Shown here: positions 1 through 33,500 of the stretch, in pieces
Layout: every line of letters starts with the position of its first letter
Numbering within the stretch: the stretch's first letter is position 1
Origin: Tricharina praecox
Lineage: Eukaryota
Reading direction: 5' to 3'
DNA: 64,000 nucleotides
Assembly (NCBI RefSeq): GCF_024521635.1
Contig: NW_026250428.1
Location: 310,001 to 374,000, forward strand
Program-made: the position numbers and the translations under genes
The notes under the pieces: model-generated
What the model was told of the DNA's origin: nothing
What the model saw: only the letters and a program-made list of their open reading frames with translations
Databases searched by the model: none

Positions 1-514
1 GGTGTAGCCTGCATACCCTCCGAATTCGCGGTTCCCGCTCGGCGGTTGCGGCGTGTAGACGTGATGCTGCTGCTGCTGTTCCTGATGTTGCTGGGGAGGC
101 GGAGGGTATACTTGTTGCTGAGGAGGCGGAGGGTATATTTGTTGCTGAGGAGGCGGAGGGTATATTTGTTGCTGAGGAGGCGGAGGGTATATTTGCTGTT
201 GGGGAGGCGGAGGGTATGTTTGCTGTTGAGGAGGCAGGGGATATGATTGCTGTTGGGGAGGCGGAGGGTATGATTGCTGCTGGGGCGGCGGAGGGTATGC
301 CTGTTGTTGGGGAGGTGGGGGATATTCCTGCTGTTGGGGAGGCGGGGGATATGCCTGTTGCTGAGGAGGCGGAGGGCATGCCTGTTGCTGAGGAGGCGGA
401 GGGTACGTTGCTTCATTGACGGAATAATCACTGACAGCCGTTCCCGCCCTGCTCAGCCGCGGGCTTGCCTCTCGCGAATGCGAATAGGCCGACTGTTGCA
501 ACTGGGCAGGAGAA

Positions 515-547
<33 letters not shown>

Positions 548-3500
548 GATGGTGGCGGCGGCGGCGGCGGTGGTGGCGTGTTCCCGCCTCTTGCCCCCGC
601 GATGGAGCCCCGATGTGCCAGGACAGCATTGTACAAGCTGCTCTGCGTCGACTGTCTGACCAGTCCGGACGGCAGTGGAGGAAGCTGTGGGGCTCCTGAC
701 GATGGCTGGTATTGTTGCTGGTAGCTGGGCTGTTGCTGGTAGCCGGGGAGCGGATGGGTTGGAGAGGCAGCGTAGGGGGGTTGGCTGTATGGCGACTCGC
801 GATACTGCTGCTGCTGTTGTTGGCTGGAGACGTTGGCCCGGGCGCCATGCTGGGGATGGTCAGGGTAGTCCTGCGGATGTGCTGAAGGCTGCCCTTGGGG
901 CTGGTGGTGATAATTGCCCGGTGACGGTGGCGGCGGCATGCCCTGGTTCTGCCCAGCTGGTGGCGGGTAGGCCATGTTCTGCGGGATTGTCTGCGACGGT
1001 TGCTGCCCAGGCGATGGGGGAGGCGGATATGATATACTCTGTCTCGGCACGAGCGGGGTGTGCCGGCCGTGGACACTCCCCGCCGGACTGTGGGGCGATG
1101 GTATCTGTTGCGGCCCAGGTTGCAGCTGCGACCCAGGTTGCTGTTCCGGGACCCCCGGTGGGTAAGTCGCGGATTGCGGTTTGTACCCGCTGTGCTGGGA
1201 GTAACCGCCAATAGACGGCCTGGACTGCGGGTACTCCTGGGGCGGCGGGACATACGGACCGGGGGCCTGTTGTGGGGCGCCATAGCTATTGACACTTCCG
1301 CTTCTCGGCAGCGCCTGGTCAAAGCTCATGTACTGTCCTGTCTTCGGGTCATAAATCTTCGGTTCGCTGCTACTGGGCTGGACGAGTGCCTGGGCACCTC
1401 CACTACCTCCACCGCCCAGCCCCGCTTTCGCCAGCCTTCCGAATTTGGTGGGAGACTGGCCGCCGCCGCCGCCGGAGGCATTGGGTGGCGATGAGGTGCG
1501 CGAGAATATGTCGGAAAACATCTTCTTGTGCCCCTTCAGCTTGCCGTTTTCCTCGGGCTTTTTCGACTTGCCGCCTCCTCCTAGTTTTGTTAGGAAACTC
1601 CCGCGTTTCGTCATTTTCTGAGGAGGTGCATCGACGACCGGCGGTGAGTAAGCAGCCTGAGGATGACCTTGTGGAGGACCCTGAGGTTGGGCCTGAGGAT
1701 AACCCTGCGGAGGTGCCTGAGGATGGGGCTGTTGTTGCTGTTGCTGCTGTTGTGGTTGTTGCTGCTGTTGTGGTGGCTGCTGATGGTGAGGCAGCTGCTG
1801 CGACACAGCTGACAAGCTACGACCCATACCATCCAGCTTATTCCCCAGGCCTCCGAGGAGACTTGTCCGTTTCCCTTTCTTCTCCGAATTCGAAGACGAC
1901 GAGCCGGGCGGGTGTCCACTGCTGTTGGAAATTGTCTGCGCAAGGGTGGAACCGCGACTCGGCGGTAGTGCCGGATGGCCATGAGGTGTCTGGGGGTGGG
2001 CAAGATTCTGGCCCGCGAAGGGTGGCTGCTGGAACTGTTGCTGCTGTTGCTGCATTTGCGGGTGTGGAGATGGCAATGATCCAGGGAATTGCTGAGAACT
2101 GGCCGCATGCGGATCTTGCAAGAGGTGCCGCTGGTCGCTATGGCCGAACGCCTGTGGGCTCAATCGCGGAGGATGGCCTTGCGGATGTCCCGCCGACGAT
2201 GCCTGCCGTACATGTTCGACAGCCGGAGGCCCTTGCTCGCTCGGCTGTGGGCGCGGGTGCTGAGGTGCCATGCCGGAAAGGCTCCGAGAGACATCCTGTT
2301 GCAGTAACGGCGGTGGTGCGATATTCTCCGGCCTTTGGCCCTGCAACTGAAGAGTAGGAGACGGTGTCATTGAATGAGGAATCGGCGGCATTAGCTGCCG
2401 GACCTCCGCCACCGGCGTTTCGGTCCGCAGCGATGATTGTTTCGGTGTCGAGTACAGATCTTCATCGGCACTGGCCGCCACCTCTCCCAGCTTCCTGGTC
2501 TCCGGAACCTCCGCTGCCGCCAGAATGACCGGTGGCACCGGCATCTGTTCCTGTACCTCAGCCTCCCGGCGTTTCGGCGTCGAGTAAAGATCATCGTCAC
2601 TGTCCTCACCTTCCATTGGTTCGTGCACGGTTGCCGTAACGGCTGAAAGGGGTGGAGGATGCGGGGTTTCGGGAATCGACGGACTATGTTCTGCGGAAGA
2701 CGGCAACGGAACACCTCTCGCTGTGATCGCGGACGACGATCCACTCTGATTTTGATTCTGCGAGGATAGACTATCCTTTCTTGCCGGGAACGGTGAATAT
2801 GACGGAGCAGCAGGAGCAGCAGCAACAGCAGCAGGTGGTGGCGGCGGCTTGGCGGAATGCGGAGATGCCGATTTAGACCCAAACCCACCGGCCAGCGGTT
2901 GGTGATGGACGCTCGGCGAGGACTGCCTTGGGCCTTCCAGCGAATGCGGCGAGGATCCCGCCTGCGGCGTCTGAGCAGCAGTGGCAGCGGTAGTGCCAAC
3001 TCTCGCTTGGAACTGAGTCTGGATGTGCGGAAGTGGCGGGGGATGGCCCATGGGAGGCGGCGAGGCGGCCGGGAGTGGTGTGGTATGCTGCGACATCGAT
3101 CCGATGGAGGCATTTCTTTCCCGTACCGCTGTCGAAGCATGCGATATGATACTGGCATTTCTAGTACGGTTTCCGACGGGCCTATCCAACTCTATAGAAT
3201 CTCCACCCCTGGTCTGATGATCTGCATTTTCCGAAGTACCCTCTTTGTTGGAATTTCCCTGCGTTCACGATCGAGCATCAGTATATACACTCATTGCTAA
3301 TACATCTCATCTGGCAGCAAGAAATCACTCTAAATTATACCTTCTTCCCAACCCGCTTGACCCAACCTCCTACCCTTCCACCAGCCATTTCTCCCAGCCT
3401 CATAGCTCCTCTTCCCATCTTCTCCAACTTCTCTTCCGCACGATGAGCCGTGCCTTCGTCGTGGCGCGAACCGCCATCCCCCGAGCGACTGGGGAAATGC

Positions 3501-6500
3501 CCCAGACCTCCCATCCGGCTCTTGCTCTTGCGCGGGACCAGACCCGTCTTGATCGAAATGATCTCGGAATTGAGCAACTGCTCGCCGTTATTGTGCTCCA
3601 TCTGGTATGTGATCCAGTCGGAAAGCGGGCTGGGAGACTCGCGGATATGTTCGCGCAGGGCATCGTACGCTCTTATACGTTCCTCTGGGCTCTCAAGCGC
3701 AGCGATGACTCTCGTGTCCCGGATTACCGCTGTTGGTTGCATCGGCGTGACCGTCCTGTCGCTGGGAGGACGGTTTCGATGTGCGTCGTCCAGGACTTCG
3801 ATGCCCTCGCCATAATCCTTGTCGAAATTGACAACCTCGGGAGCGGATTCCTCAGCCGGGGATTTCCCGCCGGGCGCCGGAGGCATGGGTGGCATCATTA
3901 CGATTCCAGATGGCATCGTCTGCTTCAGCATCAACGTCTGCGGCCTGCTGAACTGGCTGAGCAGCTCTTTCGTGTAATCGTTTTCGGCGGGCGAGTTCAG
4001 CTCATCGGCAGTCTTTGGCCTCTTCTCGACGATGGGCCCTCCGATAGCCTCGATTCCTTCGGATTCGGGGCCGAGATGCTTCGTGGGAGGGATTGCCTCC
4101 ATGCCTTCGGACTCCGGAAGAACGGGTGACCTCTGAGGCGTCTTGCCATCATCTTGGCGCGTGGCCTCTCTAGGAATAATGACAGTGTCCCGTCTATCCA
4201 AGAACCGTTTGCCGGTGGAAACCAATTCGAGAAGATCCTGATCAACGATGCTCGCAGGAGTCTGAGGTTCTGCTGGCATTGCCGAGCTGGTGTCGTGTGG
4301 TGGTGGAATTATCACAGGCGGTGGTGGCGACGACCTCTTGGGAGCTTCGGATTCAGGCCGAGGGGTAACAGCAGCCTGAGGTGAGGGGACTCTCGGTAGG
4401 TGTCCTTCAGCCGCAACAGCACGCAATGGCGATTTAGGCGGAACAGGCAAAGGGGTCCCACCAGCGGAATCATCGTTTCCATCTTGCCAATACGACTCGT
4501 ACGACGATAAGACGCCCATGCTCCCCCTTGCATTATCGGAATCAGTGGGTATCGAGTCACCCAGATAGTCGTAGACCGGTGTGGAAGAATGCGCGTGTGT
4601 CGCCGTCTCACTTGGGGAAGGTGGGGTACCCAGATAGTCCTGGATCTGGACAGAAGAGTCTGAATGTTTCTCCGTTTCCCCCGGAACCGGAAGGTTTGGG
4701 GCGATGATCGTGGGATGCAAGGCGTCCAGATCTTCCTGGCCCATCCCAGAGGAGTGCGGACGTTCTTCTGGCTCATCCAGCAAAGTTGGCTTGATGCTTG
4801 GGGAACGTGAGACGCTCAAAAAGGTCTGGTTCTGCCCGGAAGACCGCGGGCGTTCCACTAGCTCGTTCGACAAAACCGGGTTGATACTCGGAGAACGCGA
4901 GGAGACGCTCAAACGGTTCCGGTCTTGCCCATGTGGATATGTCATGGCATGCTCGGATGGGGTAGGCGTGAGACTTGGGGACCGTGTGACAGGGGTCTGC
5001 GCTCTCTCCAGTTCGCCGAGGAAGTGGTCCAGTTCATCTGATTTCTCAGAGCGTGGCGTATCTTCCATTGAGCTAGTTCTAGATACGGGTGCAACTTCGG
5101 TCGGATCACCAGAAACGGCTTCCGTTTGGAACGAAGGGGGCACGATGGATAGCCTCTTAGCACCCTCATGCGAGCTGTCGGTGGAAGGGGTTCGAACGTG
5201 AATGGAAAGTCTATCCACTGGGACCACATCTTTTTCAGCAAAGCTTCGGATACCGCTCTCTACAGGGATAGCGGGAGTAGGCGTGGTAGTGGAACGGGGC
5301 AAGTCATCATCACTGTCATCCTGCAGTGATACTGGCGGTTGGGGAAAGGTTGGCGACATGTCCGCAGGAGGGGTTTCACTGTAAGGCGTGAGGACTCCGG
5401 ACTCCGGACGTATGAACTCGTGATTCTCAAGCGTTTGAAAGCCACCACGATTGGGATCGTCGCTTCCATGCGCCAGAGGAATGGCAGTAGTCGAGGAAAG
5501 TCGTGACTGCCCAGTGGGAGGAGTGAAATAGCCCTGGTGGTCGTTGGTCTCCGCTGGCGTCTCGAAAACAGTATTAAAGTCACCCATCACTGGAGAAGCC
5601 ATTGGAGATTCCACTGGAGAATCGTGCCAAGCCGTAACATTGGCCCGTTCCTCTTCCATTTTGTCTGAGTGGTCACCGCTGACCTTCACAGGCGCGGGGT
5701 CGGTATTGATGTGATCCACCGACGGAGCAGCTTTGGACGCCGTATCCTTGCCCTTTTCTTCCTCTCGCGGCTCATCCTCGTAGTCGCTGCCGTCCGTTGG
5801 CAGTTTGGGGTCAGCTCCGATGGAATGTCCTGATGGGAAAGCCCCTGGCAATGAATCCATTGCTTTCTCCACCTCTGGTGTGTCCAGGTTTCCCTGCGAG
5901 GGTGGAATGGGCAAAGAGATTGCAGGCGGCAGGTATGGACTCGGCGCATGCTCACCCCTCGCTACGGACCCGGACCTTGACTGCGACCTTGACTGCGACC
6001 TTGACTGCGACCTTGACTGCGACCTTGACTGCGACCTTGACTGCGGCCTCGACCAAGACGTTGTCTGAAGACTCGGTGTTGTCGGTGTAGGCACGCCGGG
6101 CAAGGGAACCGCAGGGGGCGGATGGGGGCTAGGGGAATGGATCGATTCAGATCTTGCGAGTGGGCTCGATGGCGATGATCCACCGCTGCCTGAGACCCAC
6201 TGCAGAGGAACACTTGGCAATGGGATCGCGGGCGGCTGGAACGGACTCGGAGGGTGAGAAGCTCCTGACCTGGAGCGTGGCCTCGCTGGCGATGATGATA
6301 ATGACGATGATGTCGACGTCGGACTGCTACCTTGCTCTTTCTGCTGTCGAGAGGATGGGCGGCGGAGAACATCCTCTTGCAAAGCGTGTGGGTGAGGCGG
6401 CGCAAAGGCAGCATCCGAAGGCACACGGCTACGTACAGACTCCCCTCTAGTCGGAGGCCTCTGTTCGTCGTGAGATGCCGGCGTAGGCGAGGCAACACTA

Positions 6501-7965
6501 CTGATGTTGGGATCCACAATAGGCCGCCGTTCCTGCTCTTCCTGATGCCGTCTGTAGATGTCCGATGGTCTGATAATCTTTGGCTTTCCAGGCGAGGTAG
6601 GTGAAGTAGGCACGGGCGAAGCCGAAAAGCTCGAAGGCTGCTGGGTAATTGGTGGAATTAAGGGCGGTAGGGACGCTGGAGACGGTACTCTCTCGGTGGA
6701 TTTAGGTTGATAGTAGAGTGAAGATGGAGATCCGTACTGTTCGTAGTCTGGGGTGCTCTGTGGCATGGGGAAACTCGGGCCCACATGGTAATCCTGCTCA
6801 TAATCGTCATAGGTGGGCGACCTGGCCCATGACTTGGTCGGAGCTGCGACGGGTCTCGCTTGGGAAGAAGGACCGGAGCCTACACGACCGTATTCCGAGA
6901 TGGTGCCCAGATTGGCTGCCTCCGGTAGTGACTGTGGAAGCACTTGGTTGTAGACATTCGGAAGGTTAGGCAGTTGCTCGTACTGTCGTTGATCCCCCGT
7001 GAAATGTTGTCCGCCGGGCAGATCAGGCAACGACGGTACGTTTGGAGTGTACGCTGCCAGCGGCTGTGGCTGCGGCGACGAGGTCTGAGGAACAGGTGAC
7101 GTGGATGGGCTGGGTCTCGTAGGCACAGGTTTGCGAACCGAGAGCCGTTTGTGTAGCCCTTCCTGTGGTTGCTGTGGATGCGCGGGGTCAATCGAGAACG
7201 ACGGCGCATGAACAGTCGGCACGTCCCGGTAGCTCGTTGGTTGTGGTGACGGCGACTGCATGCCCTGTGGCGGCAGGGAAAGTGCAGAAGTGTGGTCGAC
7301 ATGGATTGGCGAATGGGCCGGCCTCATACTCTCGCGTTCGTCGATCTCGGACGGTGTCGGCGGGAGCATCATGTCCATCTGCGACGGCGGTGGCGGAAGT
7401 TTCACGCCGGGCGGCGGCGGCGCGAACGTCTCATCGATCTCCGAAGGGGGTGGTGGTAGTTTCATGCCCTCCGGAAACGAGTCGTGTTCTGCCGGCGCAT
7501 AGCGGGGGCCATGCTGCTGCAGCGAGGCCTGCCTCTGAGGAAACCGGCTCGAAGTCGACGCTGCTGTAGCAGACGGTCTGGCACCTTGTGCTGCGTACGG
7601 CGCAGGCGCGGGTTCGGCTGGCAAAGGAGCGCCGTGTTGGTCATCGTCGTCGTAGCCGTAGCCGTAGCCGTAGCCGTCCTCCTCCTCGTCGCCCCACAGA
7701 TCGTCATAGTTGACCTTCGCAGCTTCCACCCATCGCTTGGACTTGGCTCGGTTGATGTTTGTCTTGAAAGCGTCGGGAGAGAGCGCCGATGAAGCGGATG
7801 ATGGGGAATCGTTTCTAAGACAAAGTCCCACGCGTTAGTTACAGTCCCACGAACTTCAGCACAAAGGGAGCGCTTGGGGAGGTTGTGGTGGGTGGGTGGT
7901 TGGTGTTCTTCGGCGTACATTGGAGAGCGACCCGAATCGAAGCTCGTTTGGTAGGATCTCGACAT
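1..7965 (-). CDS. FYV8: FYV8-like large, disordered Pro/Ser-rich protein. The short isoform ends at 3335 (about 1508 aa); a spliced long isoform continues past the left window edge (>2590 aa)
   Basis: ATG at 7965 (MSRSYQTSFDSGRSP). A phase-2 intron at 7918-7815 (GTACGC...CTAAC...TTAG) joins in frame to the 3335..7831 ORF. The N-terminal motif FKTNINRAKSKRWVEAAKVNYD and the C-terminal block SPEERIRAYDALREH...SPLSDWI resemble the two conserved blocks I recall for fungal FYV8-family proteins. A second intron at 3340-3259 leads into a frame that appears open to base 1 (read at both ends; the ORF track shows no stop-terminated ORF in this frame). Confidence 0.7.
88..410 (-). repeat. 27-bp coding tandem repeat, about 11 degenerate copies, encoding QQQ(I/V/A/E)(Y/C)PPPP
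   Basis: The plus strand repeats ttgctgaggaggcggagggtatatttg-like units with a 27-bp period, in frame with the long FYV8-like exon. Confidence 0.9.
5975..6045 (-). repeat. 12-bp coding tandem repeat (ccttgactgcga, about 6 copies) encoding (SRSQ)n
   Basis: Seen directly; translates as QSRSQSRSQSRSQ in the FYV8-like ORF. Confidence 0.95.
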
Positions 7966-28860: not shown

Positions 28861-29501
28861 TTGGAGTGCGGCTCTGCGTCGGCGAAATTTTTCTTCGCCG
28901 CTAGGGCAGACTGCAGACGATAACCCGGCCGCTGCGGGCACGTGCGGCTGACGACGGCATTTGGCGGCTCAGCTTACCTGATCTACGTTCTTGTCTCGAT
29001 TTCTATTGAACCACAGATTCGAGGCACTCATCGCCAGCTTAACCGAGTCTTGAATTCATGAGATCCGGAAGGCTTCGCTCGATTTCTCCACAAATACCGT
29101 ACTCGGGTACACAGACCATCAACCGATGCGATAATCATTCGTGATCGGAGGTACAAATGTTGTGAACTAGGTATTTATCGTTAGAATTGACGGAGTGGCG
29201 TGCGTTCGTCGGAAACTCAACCGTACTGACGCTTTTGCTATCGTCTGCAGGACGATACCGATAGGCAAGATCGGTGGTCTCGTGAGTTGATAGCTGGAAT
29301 CAGGGAAGCGCGTCCGACGGTTCGCATCTCTACCAAGCTCCCGTTCTTCGGACCCCAGGCACTATCAAGCGAGGCCGGCCCTTCCGCCAGCCCACCACAC
29401 CCCACACACGCCTATACCCCGCGCGCTCTCCAATTCGGCGGCCGCTCTACCTGCCACACGGACCTTCCTTTTTTCCCCCTCTTCCGTCTTACCTCCGCGC
29501 C

Positions 29502-31660
29502 ATGTTGTCGGAGTCTGACGCGAAACGGCTGTTCCAGCTCGCGGCGGGAGTCCGCCCGGCTTCGTGCATAGAAACCGCTAATGGTCGTGGGCTGGCCAGC
29601 GAGGACCGAGTGCGTTCGGAAATAGCAGGCCTCCTGGACGGCTGCCCGAAACGCACAACCACCTTTGCGATTGCGAAAGAACTGTCGGTCGAGGTTCGTG
29701 ACGCGATAAGGCTGCTTCCGCCTGACGTCCAGTTTGGCGGCAAGTGGTGCAGGCTCGGCGAATCGGTGTTGATCGGACCAACCGAGTTCGGCCGCCTGAA
29801 GCGTCTGTTGCAGCAAGAATTGACGCAAGGCATTGTGACGGTGCGCGAGTTCGTCCAGAAGAATGAGATCGACAACGAACTGTTCTTTAAACTTTTGCCG
29901 TCGACGAAGGATGAAAGTTGGACCTGGCTCGATGCGGAGCAGACCAAAGTGTACAGTGAGAGGTACCGGGAGGATCTCAAAGATTCAATCGCTGCCCAAC
30001 TGAATCGTGATCTTAAGAGGTTAGTAGTTATCTCGTCACTGGGCACACTGGACCACGGATCAAAACGAGCTGCTTCGCTGACACTGTTAATCTTCAAGCT
30101 GCATTCAGCTCTCCACATTGAGTACTGCTCCGATCTCCTTCACCAAGGGTGTCATCCGGGATCTTCTGGATACCGGCAGGGCAGATGGCTGCATTGAAGG
30201 GGACAGGTTCATGACTGGGCTTTTCCTCGAACGGCTGCAGACGTCTGCTAGGGACGAGCTGCATTCGGAGGGGGTTGTAGGTGAGTTGAACCAACGAGAA
30301 TACCATCCTCTTGGAACGGTCTTTGGCTGACTACACAACTACCAACAGCCATAAGCACATTGCGGGAAGGACACATAGTTGACCCTCACAAGTGGTTCGA
30401 AGCGTTGGTCCCAGAGGTGCAACTGCTTAGCGACCACTTTGTGAGTCCGTGGATGATTGAAAACATTCGAAACACTATACAGAAGAAGGTCGGGTGGTTG
30501 CAGGTGTCGGAGATCAAGGTTTGTTTCGTGTACCCCCGAGGATGGATTACAGAACACATCACTAATCCGAACCCGCAGGATCCCAAGGGACGGTTGACAG
30601 CTAAAGACACGAATGTTTTGTGGCCAAGGTTGCTGGACTCGCTGCCAGATCTCGTTGCGGCGGAGGGCTTCGTGGTCGCCAAAAGCCTAGATGCCGAACT
30701 GCTGCAGATGAGCCGAGCGGTGGCATTGTTGCAGGCGGAAACGGACTGGCGACGAGAGGTCAAGTCGGACATGATCGGGATCGCGAGAGCGGTAGGTATT
30801 CACACCCCGCAGTTATATTTGTGCTATCAATTTGACCTCAAATTATGACAGCTCTTCCAATATTTCAGCGACAAGGCTTCCCTCCACCCCACATTGCGGT
30901 CCGCGTTCGCAAAGCGGCTTGCCTCTTCCTGTCATGCCGAGTACCAAGCGATGCTCGAGGAGCGACAGAAACTCAATGTGGATGCGGAGATGGCTACATT
31001 CCTTGACAAATTCCTCACGAGGTTCCACATCTACCGCACAGGTGTGGATGGTTTGGAGAAGTCCGTCCTCAAAAAAGAACTCACTCTCCACCTGCTACAG
31101 TGGGCGAGGTTGAACGGCGGCAAGTCGCTGGAAAAGGTTGAAGCAGCCACCAAGGATCCTAGCGAGGACCTACAGATGCTCCGCACCGTACTTCGGAGGA
31201 CGGACATTGCCCGGCCGCAGGATTTACTGGCGGAGATATCGCTTGCCCTCCGGAGGTTGGAACCTGACGGCATGGAAGACATCGTTTCGAGCAGAAGGAA
31301 GGCGATGCTGGTGGGGATCTATGGGGACGTTCAGAGCTTCAAAGTGCCTTCCCTGGCGCTGCTATCGACGCTCACCCTGCTGCACGCGACCAGGTCTACC
31401 GGTATATTGAAAGTGACGGGGTAGGCACCCTCGTTTCCTCGTTTTCACCAGGCGCTAATCCGCATATTCATATACACAGCCAGCATGTCCCCAAGCTCAT
31501 ACATGAAGCCTTCAGTGTGGGGTTGCTGAGCGGCCCTCAGCTCGAAATAATCAAGAGGGCCAAGGTGGCAGTTATCGGGGGAGTCGCGATGACCCCCGAT
31601 GACCGTGAGAAACTCCAGGCGATCGGAAAACAGTGCGTGGGGGCCTTGGGTTTACTCTAA
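29502..31660 (+). CDS. UFL1: UFL1-like protein (E3 UFM1-protein ligase 1 family, tandem winged-helix scaffold), 610 aa, 6 exons
   Basis: Exons are 29502-30019, 30099-30280, 30349-30518, 30579-30791, 30852-31420 and 31480-31660; all introns are GT-AG and the total is 1833 nt with no internal stop. By-eye colinear matches to human UFL1 as I recall it: LSE...ETANGRGLASEDRVRSEI ~ LSE...HTLDGKEYITPAQISKEM; LTQGIVTVREF ~ LQESGQVTISEL; VYSERY ~ IFTEAF; VIRDLLDTGRADG ~ VLEELVNSGRLRG; IYRTGVDGL...ELTLHLLQ ~ LFEKGMKFF...ALTKHLLK; PSLALLSTLTLL...ILKVTGQHVPKLI ~ PALILHLTSVLL...MLHAPGRCVPQII. Confidence 0.8.
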
Positions 31661-32451
31661 GTGAGGGGTCGGTTGAGGGTACGTATGAACCTTCAGAGCG
31701 CCATAGCCGCCCTCCTTTCTTTTCTTTTCTCTCCTCTTCAGCCTTCAGTCAGTGTTCACGGCGTTTTTTCGTCGTGCTGTGTGCAGAATTCGTGTGACTG
31801 CCTTCTCGTGTTGCATCACGAGGATATCACTCGTGGATAACAACGGGTTCTTCTACTTTATTCCGCTGTATTCCTTCACCAGTCCGTCGTGCTTTGATGT
31901 CTTCTCTTAGGAGGAGAGGGGAATGCGATTTTGTCAGGAAGATAGTGACAGAAAAATTCAGGCTGCAGATCTCCTGAAGCGGTTTAGCGAGATGAGCACG
32001 CAATCGAAGGTCGAAATGCTACCATACGCCCTTGTACGTGTGCAATATACTTCCAGGGCCAAAACACCCAAAACACCACGAAAGATGGCGAAATCGGATG
32101 CAGCGCTACCCAGAGGGTCTGCCTCATCTTCCCGATGGCCGAACTCCCCGTTTTGTCGTGCTTACATATCCGTATTGAATGTCATATCTCCCTTTCCCCC
32201 GTGTTGCAAGCCATATCTCCCTTTTCCCCCGCCACCCCACCCACAACCGTCCGAGTCCCACTCATATACCCTCGAACGCCCTCTTGCTTTTATTGCCAGC
32301 CCACTTCGATCTCCTCATACACCATCCCAATCATCTACGTCATCTAGTTTTACGGCATATCATCCAGTACATCTAGACGCCCAGCACAGCGAGATTCAAG
32401 GAGTTGTTCAACACACGCAAACACACTTACCGCAAACAACAACATATCAAC

Positions 32452-33500
32452 ATGTCTACTGAACTCAGACACTCCATGTCTCAGGACCACGATGGTGCCG
32501 AGTCCGGTTACGATTCCGCGGGTTCCGCCTCCGTGGCCAGCTTACAGACCATCTACTTCACGCCTCCTCATCTGAAATACATCAATGCACAGCTTGCGGA
32601 GCTCGAACCCGAAGGTATTTTTTTTGCAGTGCAGCATATATGTTGAGGGATTCATGTGCTAACGTTTATATCCAGCCATCCTGCAATGGTGTCTCATGAC
32701 CCTCCCCAACCTTTACCAGACCACAGCATTCGGCCTGAGCGGACTCGTCACCGTCGACATCCTCTCCAAGATCTCACCAAACAAGCCCATCGACCTGATC
32801 TTCCTGGACACCCTCTACCACTTCAAGGAGACCCTCGAGCTCGTGGACCGGGTCAAGAAGCGCTACACCAATGTCGACATCCACGTCTTCAAGCCCAAGG
32901 ACTGCGAGACCGCCGAGGAGTTTGAGAGCCTGCACGGAGAGCGGCTGTGGGAGACCAGCGACAACTACTACGACTACCTCGCCAAGGTCGAGCCGGCCGA
33001 GCGGGCGTACCGCGAGTTGGAGGTCAAGGCTGTCCTGACGGGTCGTCGCCGCAGCCAGGGTGGAAAGCGGGGAGACTTGGATATTGTTGAGGTTGACGAT
33101 GCGGGATTGATTAAGATCAACCCCCTCGCCAACTGGTCGTTCAAGCAGGTCAAGGAGTACATCGACAAGCACAAGGTGCCTTACAATGTCCTGCTCGACC
33201 GGGGATACAAGAGTGTCGGTGACTGGCACAGCACACAGTATGTTCTTGTCCCCAGCCGATGCATGACGACGTTTGCTGATTGAACTCCCCAGGCCCGTCA
33301 AGGAAGGTGAAGATGAGCGAGCTGGTCGATGGAAGGGTCAGGCCAAGACCGAGTGCGGAATCCACAACAAGCGATCCAAGTACGCCGAGTACCTGCGCCA
33401 GTTGGACATGCAGAAGCAGGAGCAAGCTCTGACCGAGGCACTCAAGCAAGTCGAGCTTGAGCAGAGTTCTAGTCCCTCCACCGCCGAGATTGCCGTATAG
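32452..33500 (+). CDS. MET16: 3'-phosphoadenylylsulfate (PAPS) reductase
   Basis: Motifs LYQTTAFGLSGLV, LIFLDTLYHFKET, LTGRRRSQG, KINPLANW, YNVLLDRGYKSVGDWHST and ERAGRWKGQAKTECGIH (catalytic ECGIH). Introns at 32615-32675 and 33238-33292. Confidence 0.97.

Follow-up and report, generated by a model that had tools for sequence, protein, structure and literature searches.

The Pezizales fungus Tricharina praecox possesses a transcribed and spliced gene for a 610-residue protein that is almost certainly a homolog of UFL1, the scaffold of the E3 ligase that attaches UFM1 to ribosomes. Fungi are usually described as lacking UFMylation. The identification rests on sequence profiles and predicted folds, drawn from the relatives of the protein and from structural models. 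Taken as a whole, the explanation that this real gene encodes a fast-evolving UFL1 ortholog, which has lost a helix and a loop of the human protein and acts as a UFM1-independent scaffold, is somewhat favored.

Gene structure and transcription

The gene lies in a 64,000-nucleotide stretch of contig NW_026250428.1, hereafter the window, from whose first letter all positions are counted. As read from the sequence, it occupies 29502–31660 of the plus strand and is composed of six exons (Table 1). The coding sequence spans 1833 nucleotides, corresponding to 610 codons and a TAA stop codon, and contains no internal stop. All five introns begin with GT and end with AG. No in-frame ATG is present upstream of 29502 as far back as the stop codon at 29283–29285, and all 11 rows of the family alignment share the start methionine M1. 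Intron 3 is stop-free and in frame, yet it is removed from the RNA, and the relatives have no residues at this position.

Table 1. Features of the T. praecox UFL1-like locus, in window coordinates.
Feature	Position	Strand	Description
5' UTR	29400..29501 (minimum extent)	+	X1 and X2 contigs continue further upstream
Exon 1	29502..30019	+	aa 1–172 and 2 bases; N-terminal helix (aa 4–14), β-hairpin (aa 22–33), WH1, WH2, helix 1 of WH3
Intron 1	30020..30098	+	79 nt, GT..AG; joint in X1, X2, and X3 contigs
Exon 2	30099..30280	+	aa 173–234, codon split at either end; WH3 region; colinear with relatives in A1
Intron 2	30281..30348	+	68 nt, GT..AG; joint in X1 and X2
Exon 3	30349..30518	+	through aa 290; WH4 region; RNA contigs and alignment of relatives
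Intron 3	30519..30578	+	60 nt, GT..AG; joint in X1 and X2
Exon 4	30579..30791	+	aa 291–361; WH5 and the helix after WH5
Intron 4	30792..30851	+	60 nt, GT..AG; joint in X1 and X2
Exon 5	30852..31420	+	aa 362–550 and 2 bases; C-terminal helical region
C-terminal motif, G..K.TG..VPKL	31401..31498	+	aa 545–557; interrupted by intron 5; the family's best-conserved C-terminal motif
Intron 5	31421..31479	+	59 nt, GT..AG; joint in X1 and X2
Exon 6	31480..31660	+	aa 551–610, TAA at 31658–31660; end of C-terminal domain
GT..AG interval 3' of the stop	31679..31961	+	283 nt, noncoding; from loose ends of RNA contigs

Two sequencing runs from two studies, X1 and X2, are recorded as RNA by guess only; nonetheless, one contig of each lacks all five introns, with exact joints and no extra letters. 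The X1 and X2 contigs are continuous over 29400–30017, with no joint; 240 letters of the X2 record lie before 29400. A third run from an RNA library, X3, contributes two short contigs with a depth of 2–2.6, from which intron 1 is removed. The loose end of one X3 contig matches the start of exon 4. Downstream of the stop codon, a loose end of the X1 and X2 contigs at 31679 carries letters found from ~31962 of the window. The interval between these points is probably spliced out, judging from the sequence of RNA contigs that continue into a PAPS-reductase gene. Runs from three studies thus show that the UFL1-like gene is real, transcribed, and correctly spliced.

The initial annotation had described a clean, undisrupted six-exon gene of 610 amino acids, and the sequence, the spliced RNA contigs, and the NCBI gene model all agree with it at the coordinates of Table 1. 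It had also proposed expression as a check, and both transcription and splicing are seen in the RNA contigs. Its term "intact" is appropriate for the gene itself, but not for the full architecture of human UFL1, of which two functional elements are seemingly absent.

A diverged protein family in Pezizales

The spliced translation is identical to a stored protein, P0027, across all 610 residues. P0027 is the NCBI model "hypothetical protein BZA05DRAFT_146537 [Tricharina praecox]", from a species of the order Pezizales. It belongs to a 90% cluster represented by P0001, a fragment of 157 amino acids. Because the cluster representative is a fragment, a query with exon 1 for longer proteins gave a false negative, with none found among 1579 candidates.

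The T. praecox protein aligns end to end with a relative, P0002, at 37% over 620 columns (E 3e-108). Its identity to the other Pezizales members, some of which belong to its own family Pyronemataceae, is 27–37%. The gene is conserved across Pezizales; of the columns of the family alignment, 30 are invariant and a further 30 nearly so. A word-index search with one alignment of the family, A1, returned five proteins, every one of them from the fungal family and none a canonical UFL1. Two library matches, P0004 (14 stretches) and P0009 (9 stretches), proved to be repeat artefacts with TAFII28 and unrelated families, and were excluded from every alignment.

Sequence profiles match UFL1

P0027 alone scores 16.4 bits (E 0.0073) against the Pfam family PF09743 (E3_UFM1_ligase), below the gathering cut-off of 23.2. 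PF09743 is still its best Pfam family, and the match covers profile positions 42–270 of 272. A phmmer search of P0027 against the PDB found no UFL1 chain at E ≤ 10, and thus nothing by sequence. Searches with single exons were similarly blank. In Pfam, no UFL1 family was matched by any of the six exon translations at E ≤ 1, exons 1 and 5 found no UFL1 in the PDB by phmmer at E ≤ 10, and an Atlas search with exon 5 reached no family, its best score being 0.79. Exon 5 has 19 library matches at E ≤ 0.001. The exon-wise blanks do not count against homology, because they arise from splitting a weakly scoring domain. Since P0027 alone passes neither the Pfam cut-off nor the PDB and exon searches, its identity rests on relatives and models.

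The relatives give a clearer signal. The four full-length Pezizales relatives tested first all pass the PF09743 cut-off, with scores of 31.3–58.6 bits. At E ≤ 0.01, PF09743 is matched by all 11 members and is the best Pfam family in each, and PF25041 (UFL1_C) is matched by seven. Family profiles that include the T. praecox protein match human UFL1 with E values of 2.3e-22 (A1) and 6.9e-22 (a second alignment, A4). The match consists of two colinear stretches: profile positions 26–347 correspond to human residues 47–390, and positions 467–593 to residues 618–738.

Predicted folds match UFL1

AlphaFold models were generated for P0002 (pLDDT 90.8) and for exon 1 of the T. praecox gene (pLDDT 83.4) from alignments that were shallow (29 and 11 rows). 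In Foldseek searches, the top six matches of the P0002 model are all UFL1 chains (best E 3.1e-20), and human UFL1 chains fill the first seven places for the exon-1 model (best E 3.8e-6). VIA-align likewise ranks human UFL1 first for both models and places residues 4..607 of P0002 onto residues 29..785 of human UFL1 (Z 16.0, 575 residues), and residues 1..172 of exon 1 onto residues 29..199 (Z 11.8, 167 aligned). An ESM Atlas model of the T. praecox protein aligns with a chordate UFL1 cluster over 491 residues with a TM score of 0.56.

In the P0002 model, one helix and a hairpin are followed by five winged-helix units of helices and strands, and the C terminus is helical. As modeled, the partial winged helix, WH1–WH5, and the C-terminal helical region of UFL1 are all present in the family; beyond exon 1, this architecture is transferred to T. 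praecox through its alignment with P0002 (37%).

The profiles and folds support the earlier proposal that a filamentous ascomycete has a genuine, though highly diverged, homolog of UFL1. By-eye alignment had suggested colinearity starting at the first winged helix and reaching the C-terminal domain, and the two profile stretches, at ~1e-22, are in line with this. Of the checks that the initial annotation suggested, AlphaFold modeling followed by Foldseek ranked human UFL1 first for both models. The hmmscan and PDB searches of the spliced protein gave a divided result, in that P0027 alone stayed below the cut-off and without a PDB match, while its relatives and the family profiles do match UFL1.

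The N-terminal helix

In human UFL1, the partial winged helix is a half-domain completed by DDRGK1/UFBP1. The helix and hairpin of the fungal protein superpose on this element, at human residues 28–58. More extensively, 172 T. praecox residues superpose on 171 human residues from 28–29, and on residues 28..162 of the chain 8c0d_A. Because the fungal protein starts at human residue 28–29, only one helix precedes the hairpin, where human UFL1 has two. The profile alignment begins at human residues 47–51, with only 25–29 profile positions ahead of it.

Helix α1 of UFL1 is formed by residues 1–25 and is followed by the partial winged helix (Peter 2022). A fragment comprising residues 27–200 neither binds UFC1 nor supports ligation, and the conserved hydrophobic residues of α1 are W5, I8, L11, and F15 (Banerjee 2023). 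The helix missing from the fungal protein would be α1, the recruiter of the E2 enzyme UFC1. As the missing helix would be this recruiter, the fungal protein most likely would no longer be a UFM1 ligase.

The N-terminal helix also allows a different interpretation, in which Pezizales hold a complete, unnoticed UFMylation pathway, the protein is a working E3 scaffold, and the single helix is a functional counterpart of α1 that recruits UFC1. The helix is strongly conserved, with a nearly invariant K8 and a recurrent D-x-K-x-L-F-R pattern. It is separated from the hairpin by a variable linker: in the 10 members whose N terminus is complete, 22 to 47 residues come before a conserved Glu. The linker is rich in Pro, Ser, and Gln, as for a loosely tethered helix like α1, and its pLDDT in the models is only 62–79; a tethered E2-binding helix would sit on such a disordered-looking segment. 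At two of the four named hydrophobic positions of α1, I8 and L11, most members carry Ile/Leu-type residues with matching spacing. In addition, the gene is expressed, its conservation extends across the order, and published surveys took in few fungi. However, most members have non-hydrophobic residues in place of W5 and F15, the superpositions equate the helix with that of the partial winged helix and not with α1, and the PTC loop is absent, as described below. UFM1 is moreover reported to be lost in fungi (Grau-Bove 2015; Tsaban 2021; and passages of Picchianti 2023, PMC10183829). A complete pathway is therefore considered unlikely. The models favor a protein in which the UFC1-binding N-terminal helix is seemingly absent, although the variable linker leaves room for an α1-like single helix.

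No match to DDRGK (PF09756) was found among the 133 ORF translations of the window. A complex prediction with two copies of exon 1, directed at self-completion of the half winged helix, gave no answer (score 0.00).

The PTC loop

The PTC loop of human UFL1 is an 88-residue protrusion (residues 388–476) that reaches into the peptidyl-transferase centre and has GGN at its apex (Makhlouf 2024). In the A4 alignment, only eight profile positions (369–376) stand opposite human residues 407–515. The corresponding interval measures 33–41 residues in all 11 members, and none of them contains GGN or GGQ there. By these alignments, the fungal family appears to be without the ~100-residue stretch that holds the PTC loop in human UFL1.

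The C-terminal domain, the ribosome interface, and divergence

On the 60S subunit, the C-terminal domain of human UFL1 fills the tRNA sites. The fungal C-terminal domain aligns to human residues 516/618–738, and a G-x-x-V-P motif is common to both. The conserved motif at residues 545–557, in which G545 is nearly invariant, aligns with the G-R-x-V-P stretch of the human domain.

In WH4 of human UFL1, residues W256, F260, Y266, and L275 contact the ribosomal protein RPL10a (Makhlouf 2024). In the A1 profile alignment, these residues align with Ser, Glu, Val, and Gly of the T. praecox protein. Because the contact residues are replaced, the human ribosome interface is not simply conserved.

The T. 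praecox protein has evolved rapidly. In a nine-row Pezizales tree, which contains no outgroup, its terminal branch is 1.6, compared with a median of 0.63. Together with the score of P0027 below the Pfam cut-off, this bears out the description of the protein as highly diverged. The long branch could reflect relaxed constraint.

These features raise the prospect that the UFL1 descendant has left the ribosome, either for a new role as a winged-helix scaffold away from both ER and ribosome or through drift under relaxed constraint in T. praecox. Besides the long branch and the unconserved RPL10a contacts, the low identity to other Pezizales members points in this direction. Passages of Picchianti et al. 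2023 (PMC10183829) also report the loss in fungi of CDK5RAP3, which shares the RPL10a interface. Such a departure is nevertheless doubtful, for the six exons form an uninterrupted reading frame, spliced transcripts occur in the runs of three studies, and the whole architecture is kept. The invariant and nearly invariant columns of the family, moreover, include the C-terminal motif common to human UFL1.

A candidate UFM1-independent scaffold

In the favored explanation, the fungal UFL1 would survive as a UFM1-independent scaffold. This mechanism is put forward as a tentative one. Its half winged helix would pair with a DDRGK1-type partner, and its C-terminal region would bind the 60S subunit. 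A more specific version is that the stripped-down Pezizales UFL1, together with a DDRGK1-type membrane partner, acts at the ER as a clamp on terminated or stalled 60S subunits, which it frees from SEC61 without UFM1 conjugation. This version is speculative and, as it stands, rather improbable. If true, it would represent a natural "ligase-dead" UREL clamp. It would also provide one answer to the question, raised by Makhlouf et al. 2024, of how fungi without UFMylation recycle ER-bound 60S subunits and release them from ER translocons.

The initial annotation had posed a cryptic UFMylation system and an orphan UFL1 with a UFM1-independent job as alternatives. A role of UFL1 apart from UFM1 has been suggested before. 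Passages of Picchianti et al. 2023 (PMC10183829) describe the retention of UFL1 and DDRGK1 by certain fungi after the loss of UFM1; C53 is lost as well. The same passages also cite Albugo and Neocallimastigomycetes, and suggest a UFMylation-independent role of UFL1-DDRGK1. No ascomycete is named as a keeper of UFL1 in these text passages, no literature pairing UFM1 with Pezizomycotina or Dikarya was found, and no description of the present UFL1 domain losses was found in the literature searched. The initial annotation had presented the gene as part of a poorly described fungal system; the published retention of fungal UFL1 and DDRGK1 lowers this novelty and, since it concerns UFM1-less fungi, limits the importance of the finding. 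The Pezizales UFL1 nonetheless constitutes a candidate natural separation-of-function variant, in which the scaffold and the C-terminal region are kept and the E2-binding helix and the PTC loop are apparently lost. It could reveal roles of UFL1 apart from ligation, and some of these fungi are culturable.

Comparison with known systems

Repeated winged helices occur in several other proteins. The C-terminal domain of SelB, ESCRT-II Vps25/Vps36, and PCI proteins share this generic fold with the fungal protein at Z scores of 8–9. They show no sequence-profile relation, do not have the C-terminal helical domain, and score clearly lower than UFL1. For the exon-1 model, the next folds after UFL1 are the winged helices of SelB and ESCRT-II, with Foldseek E values of ~1e-2 compared with 4e-6. 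UFL1 chains lead the next family by 3–7 units of Z and by roughly four orders of magnitude in Foldseek E value. A better match to another winged-helix or PCI family, which the initial annotation had named as a refuting outcome, did not occur. That the protein is a different tandem winged-helix or PCI-type protein, resembling UFL1 by fold convergence, is effectively refuted, because the commonness of winged-helix repeats and the sub-threshold Pfam score of P0027 are outweighed by this lead, by PF09743 as the best Pfam family of every member, and by profile matches at ~1e-22 that include the C-terminal domain, which is not a winged helix.

Human UFL1 and the fungal protein contain a partial winged helix, WH1–WH5, and a C-terminal helical region in the same order. 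The two proteins differ in length, with 794 residues in human UFL1 and 610 in the fungal protein, and their identity in structural alignments is 12–16%. Human UFL1 has a separate α1, the PTC loop, and RPL10a-contacting residues in WH4, which the fungal protein seemingly lacks. The T. praecox protein also resembles the UFL1 of the UFM1-less keepers of UFL1 and DDRGK1 described in passages of Picchianti 2023 (PMC10183829): it is likewise a UFL1 homolog within a kingdom reported to be without UFM1 and C53.

Structure and expression of the gene

The gene is expressed and encodes a scaffold of the UFL1 family composed of a half winged helix, five winged helices (WH1–WH5), and a C-terminal domain. 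It apparently lacks both alpha1, the N-terminal helix that recruits the E2 UFC1 in human UFL1, and the PTC loop, which enters the peptidyl-transferase centre.

Exons of the UFL1-family gene, in window coordinates
Feature	Position	Strand	Basis
Exon 1	29502-30019	+	sequence reading
Exon 2	30099-30280	+	sequence reading
Exon 3	30349-30518	+	sequence reading
Exon 4	30579-30791	+	sequence reading
Exon 5	30852-31420	+	sequence reading
Exon 6	31480-31660	+	sequence reading

The exons, joined by script, form a 1833-nt coding sequence (610 codons plus TAA) with no internal stop and a GC3 of 0.687. The five introns span 79, 68, 60, 60, and 59 nt and are all bounded by GT..AG. The translation is identical in 610 of 610 residues to P0027, the NCBI model 'hypothetical protein BZA05DRAFT_146537 [Tricharina praecox]'. 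T. praecox belongs to the Pyronemataceae (Pezizales, Pezizomycetes, Ascomycota).

Part of the gene is present in three of the six sequencing runs listed by the run search. For X1 and X2, runs from two studies, the RNA nature is only a guess; their contigs are nonetheless devoid of all five introns, one contig from each crossing all five with exact joints and no other letters. X3, an RNA library, contributes two short contigs in which intron 1 is spliced out, and a loose end in one of them matches the start of exon 4. Intron 3 (30519-30578, 60 nt) is in frame and stop-free, so that ORF finders fuse exons 3 and 4 into a 187-aa frame (30285-30848); the RNA contigs and the relatives show that it is removed by splicing. 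The initial annotation of an undisrupted six-exon gene of 610 aa at 29502-31660 is thus correct in every detail, by sequence reading, script translation, RNA contigs, and P0027.

The X3 library is labelled as a seawater metatranscriptome. Its contigs, of 215 and 151 nt at a depth of 2-2.6 (window 29978-30519), match the spliced mRNA of the gene with 100% identity. This is unexpected for a cup fungus of soil and could reflect carry-over or wider occurrence.

The X1 and X2 contigs (3942 and 4257 nt) extend beyond the stop codon. Their loose end at 31679 resumes with letters from about 31962, implying a 283-nt GT..AG intron (31679-31961) 19 nt 3' of the stop. The contigs then continue for ~2 kb, to about 34000, into a PAPS-reductase gene (PF01507, ORF 32663-33280, plus strand). 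This run-on represents either read-through or overlapping transcripts that were joined during assembly; alternatively, the PAPS-reductase mRNA has a 5' leader beginning within the 3' end of the UFL1-family gene.

The surrounding ORFs belong to ordinary eukaryotic families: ANAPC5, Med12/SRB8, Arb2, PAPS reductase, MYST zinc finger, squalene synthase, and EF-G-like GTPase. On the minus strand, window 1-7834 is taken up by a pair of very long open frames: one of 1088 aa at 1-3264, which is cut off by the window edge, and one of 1499 aa at 3335-7834. The two may constitute a single very large low-complexity gene. No Pfam family is assigned to them; their sole match, a sub-threshold hit to the coronavirus nucleocapsid profile (23.6 bits, cut-off 30), is probably compositional.

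Assignment to the UFL1 family

In Pfam, none of the six exon translations matches any UFL1 family at E ≤ 1. Against PF09743 (E3_UFM1_ligase), the complete protein reaches 16.4 bits (E 0.0073), below the cut-off of 23.2 bits, and a phmmer search of PDB sequences returns no UFL1 chain at E ≤ 10. These results for the window sequence itself are weak, but PF09743 is still the best Pfam family of the protein and its profile is covered almost entirely. The low score is explained by the long terminal branch of the window protein, 1.6 against a median of 0.63 in a maximum-likelihood tree of nine family members.

The relatives, rather than the window sequence alone, settle the UFL1 identity. With exon 5 as the query, exhaustive scanning by HMMER collected 19 proteins at E ≤ 0.001. 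Two (P0004 and P0009) were removed as repeat artefacts; the others are either full-length, at 600-670 aa, or fragments of ORF size. The named members, each annotated 'hypothetical protein', belong to six genera of the Pezizales: Wilcoxina, Trichophaea, Pyronema, Morchella, Rhizina, and Geopyxis. The window protein aligns with them end to end, most closely with Wilcoxina (37% identity, 620 columns, E 3e-108). P0027 sits inside a 90% cluster represented by a 157-aa fragment, P0001. Because this fragment masks P0027, an exon-1 word-index search for longer proteins was empty, a pitfall for claims of 'no homolog' drawn from such searches.

All four full-length relatives tested pass the PF09743 cut-off (31.3-58.6 bits). 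In the 11-row family alignment, PF09743 is found in 11 rows and PF25041 (UFL1_C) in seven at E ≤ 0.01. Family profiles that include the window protein match human UFL1 with E values of 2.3e-22 and 6.9e-22 in two colinear stretches, profile positions 26-347 to residues 47-390 and 467-593 to residues 618-738.

The AlphaFold model of P0002, a full-length relative, has a pLDDT of 90.8. Its six best Foldseek matches are all UFL1 chains (top E 3.1e-20), followed by SelB (6.4e-4), and VIA-align superimposes it on UFL1 with a Z of 16.0 over 575 residues. For the model of window exon 1 (pLDDT 83.4), the seven best matches are also UFL1 chains (3.8e-6 to 7.2e-5), followed by ESCRT-II (1.1e-2). The ESM Atlas contains the exact window protein in a cluster of 102 members, most of them from Ascomycota. 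UFL1 clusters follow next, with scores of 0.92 and 0.89, and the stored model of the window protein aligns with the chordate UFL1 cluster over 491 residues (TM 0.56). The initial annotation of a highly diverged UFL1 homolog, including its colinear match to human UFL1, is borne out by these comparisons and by the long branch.

The Atlas also holds a 77-protein archaeal cluster (Promethearchaeota, 788 aa) that carries PCI, E3_UFM1_ligase, and DDRGK on the same proteins, at a TM of only 0.25 to the window protein. The combination is a hint that Asgard archaea had an ancestral protein of fused UFL1/DDRGK1-like type.

Comparison with human UFL1

UFL1 consists of an N-terminal helix (residues 1-25), a partial winged helix completed by UFBP1/DDRGK1, five winged helices, and a C-terminal helical region (Peter et al. 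2022). A fusion of UFL1 27-200 to DDRGK1 neither binds UFC1 nor supports ligation, and the conserved contacts are named as W5, I8, L11, and F15 (Banerjee et al. 2023). Human UFL1 has two N-terminal helices, whereas the models of the fungal proteins have one before the hairpin (window residues 4-14; P0002 residues 4-17). Window residues 1-172 superimpose on human residues 29-199 (167 aligned) and on 28-162 of 8c0d_A, and the P0002 model shows the same offset. Given the single helix and a superposition starting at human residue 28-29, one helix therefore appears to be absent from the modelled fungal proteins, by superposition alpha1. The linker behind the fungal helix is rich in Pro, Ser, and Gln, is modelled with moderate confidence, and varies from 22 to 47 residues ahead of a conserved Glu in the ten members with a complete N terminus. 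In view of this variability, the fungal helix may instead be alpha1-like.

An 88-residue protrusion of UFL1 (residues 388-476) with a GGN apex enters the peptidyl-transferase centre (Makhlouf et al. 2024). In the profile alignment, only eight family positions face human residues 407-515. The matching interval is just 33-41 residues long in all 11 family members, none of which has a GGN or GGQ motif there. W256, F260, Y266, and L275 of human UFL1 touch RPL10a of the L1 stalk (Makhlouf et al. 2024); opposite them the window protein has Ser, Glu, Val, and Gly, a reading that depends on the alignment. The helix-plus-hairpin half domain, WH1–WH5, and the C-terminal domain are common to both. The best-conserved C-terminal motif of the family (residues 545-557, across intron 5) aligns with the human G-R-x-V-P stretch.

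Possible function and relation to known fungal systems

Since alpha1 is apparently absent, fungal UFL1 would not recruit charged UFC1 by the known route. Its half winged helix would engage a DDRGK1-type partner, and its C-terminal region has perhaps kept 60S subunit binding. A UFM1-independent scaffold is our tentative reading, at somewhat under even chances. The proposed mechanism fits Picchianti et al. 2023 (PMC10183829), who state that UFM1 and C53 were lost in fungi, that pathway components persist in certain fungi, and that UFL1–DDRGK1 may act independently of UFMylation.

Translations of 133 of the 301 window ORFs of at least 90 aa were scanned, and none matches a UFM-pathway family. We consider it unlikely that the protein works within a complete, cryptic UFMylation pathway. 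A repurposed or drifting relic seems equally doubtful. That the protein is not UFL1 is very improbable.

NCBI already lists the gene model, under an uncharacterised protein, and PF09743 is in the precomputed annotation of several relatives. Literature searches joining UFM1 with Pezizomycotina or with Dikarya found no paper. Tsaban 2021, the one paper found that treats UFL1, DDRGK1, and Ascomycota together, states only that the pathway genes were lost throughout fungi; Grau-Bove 2015 likewise reports loss of Ufm1 throughout fungi. The 'poorly described fungal system' of the initial annotation needs narrowing, as retention of UFL1 and DDRGK1 in some UFM1-less fungi is already published (Picchianti et al. 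2023), and a Pezizomycete may already be scored in a species-level figure or appendix of that paper. New here are the confirmed expression and splicing of the gene, the placement of so divergent a member in the UFL1 family, and, throughout the fungal family, an apparent loss of both alpha1 and the PTC loop.
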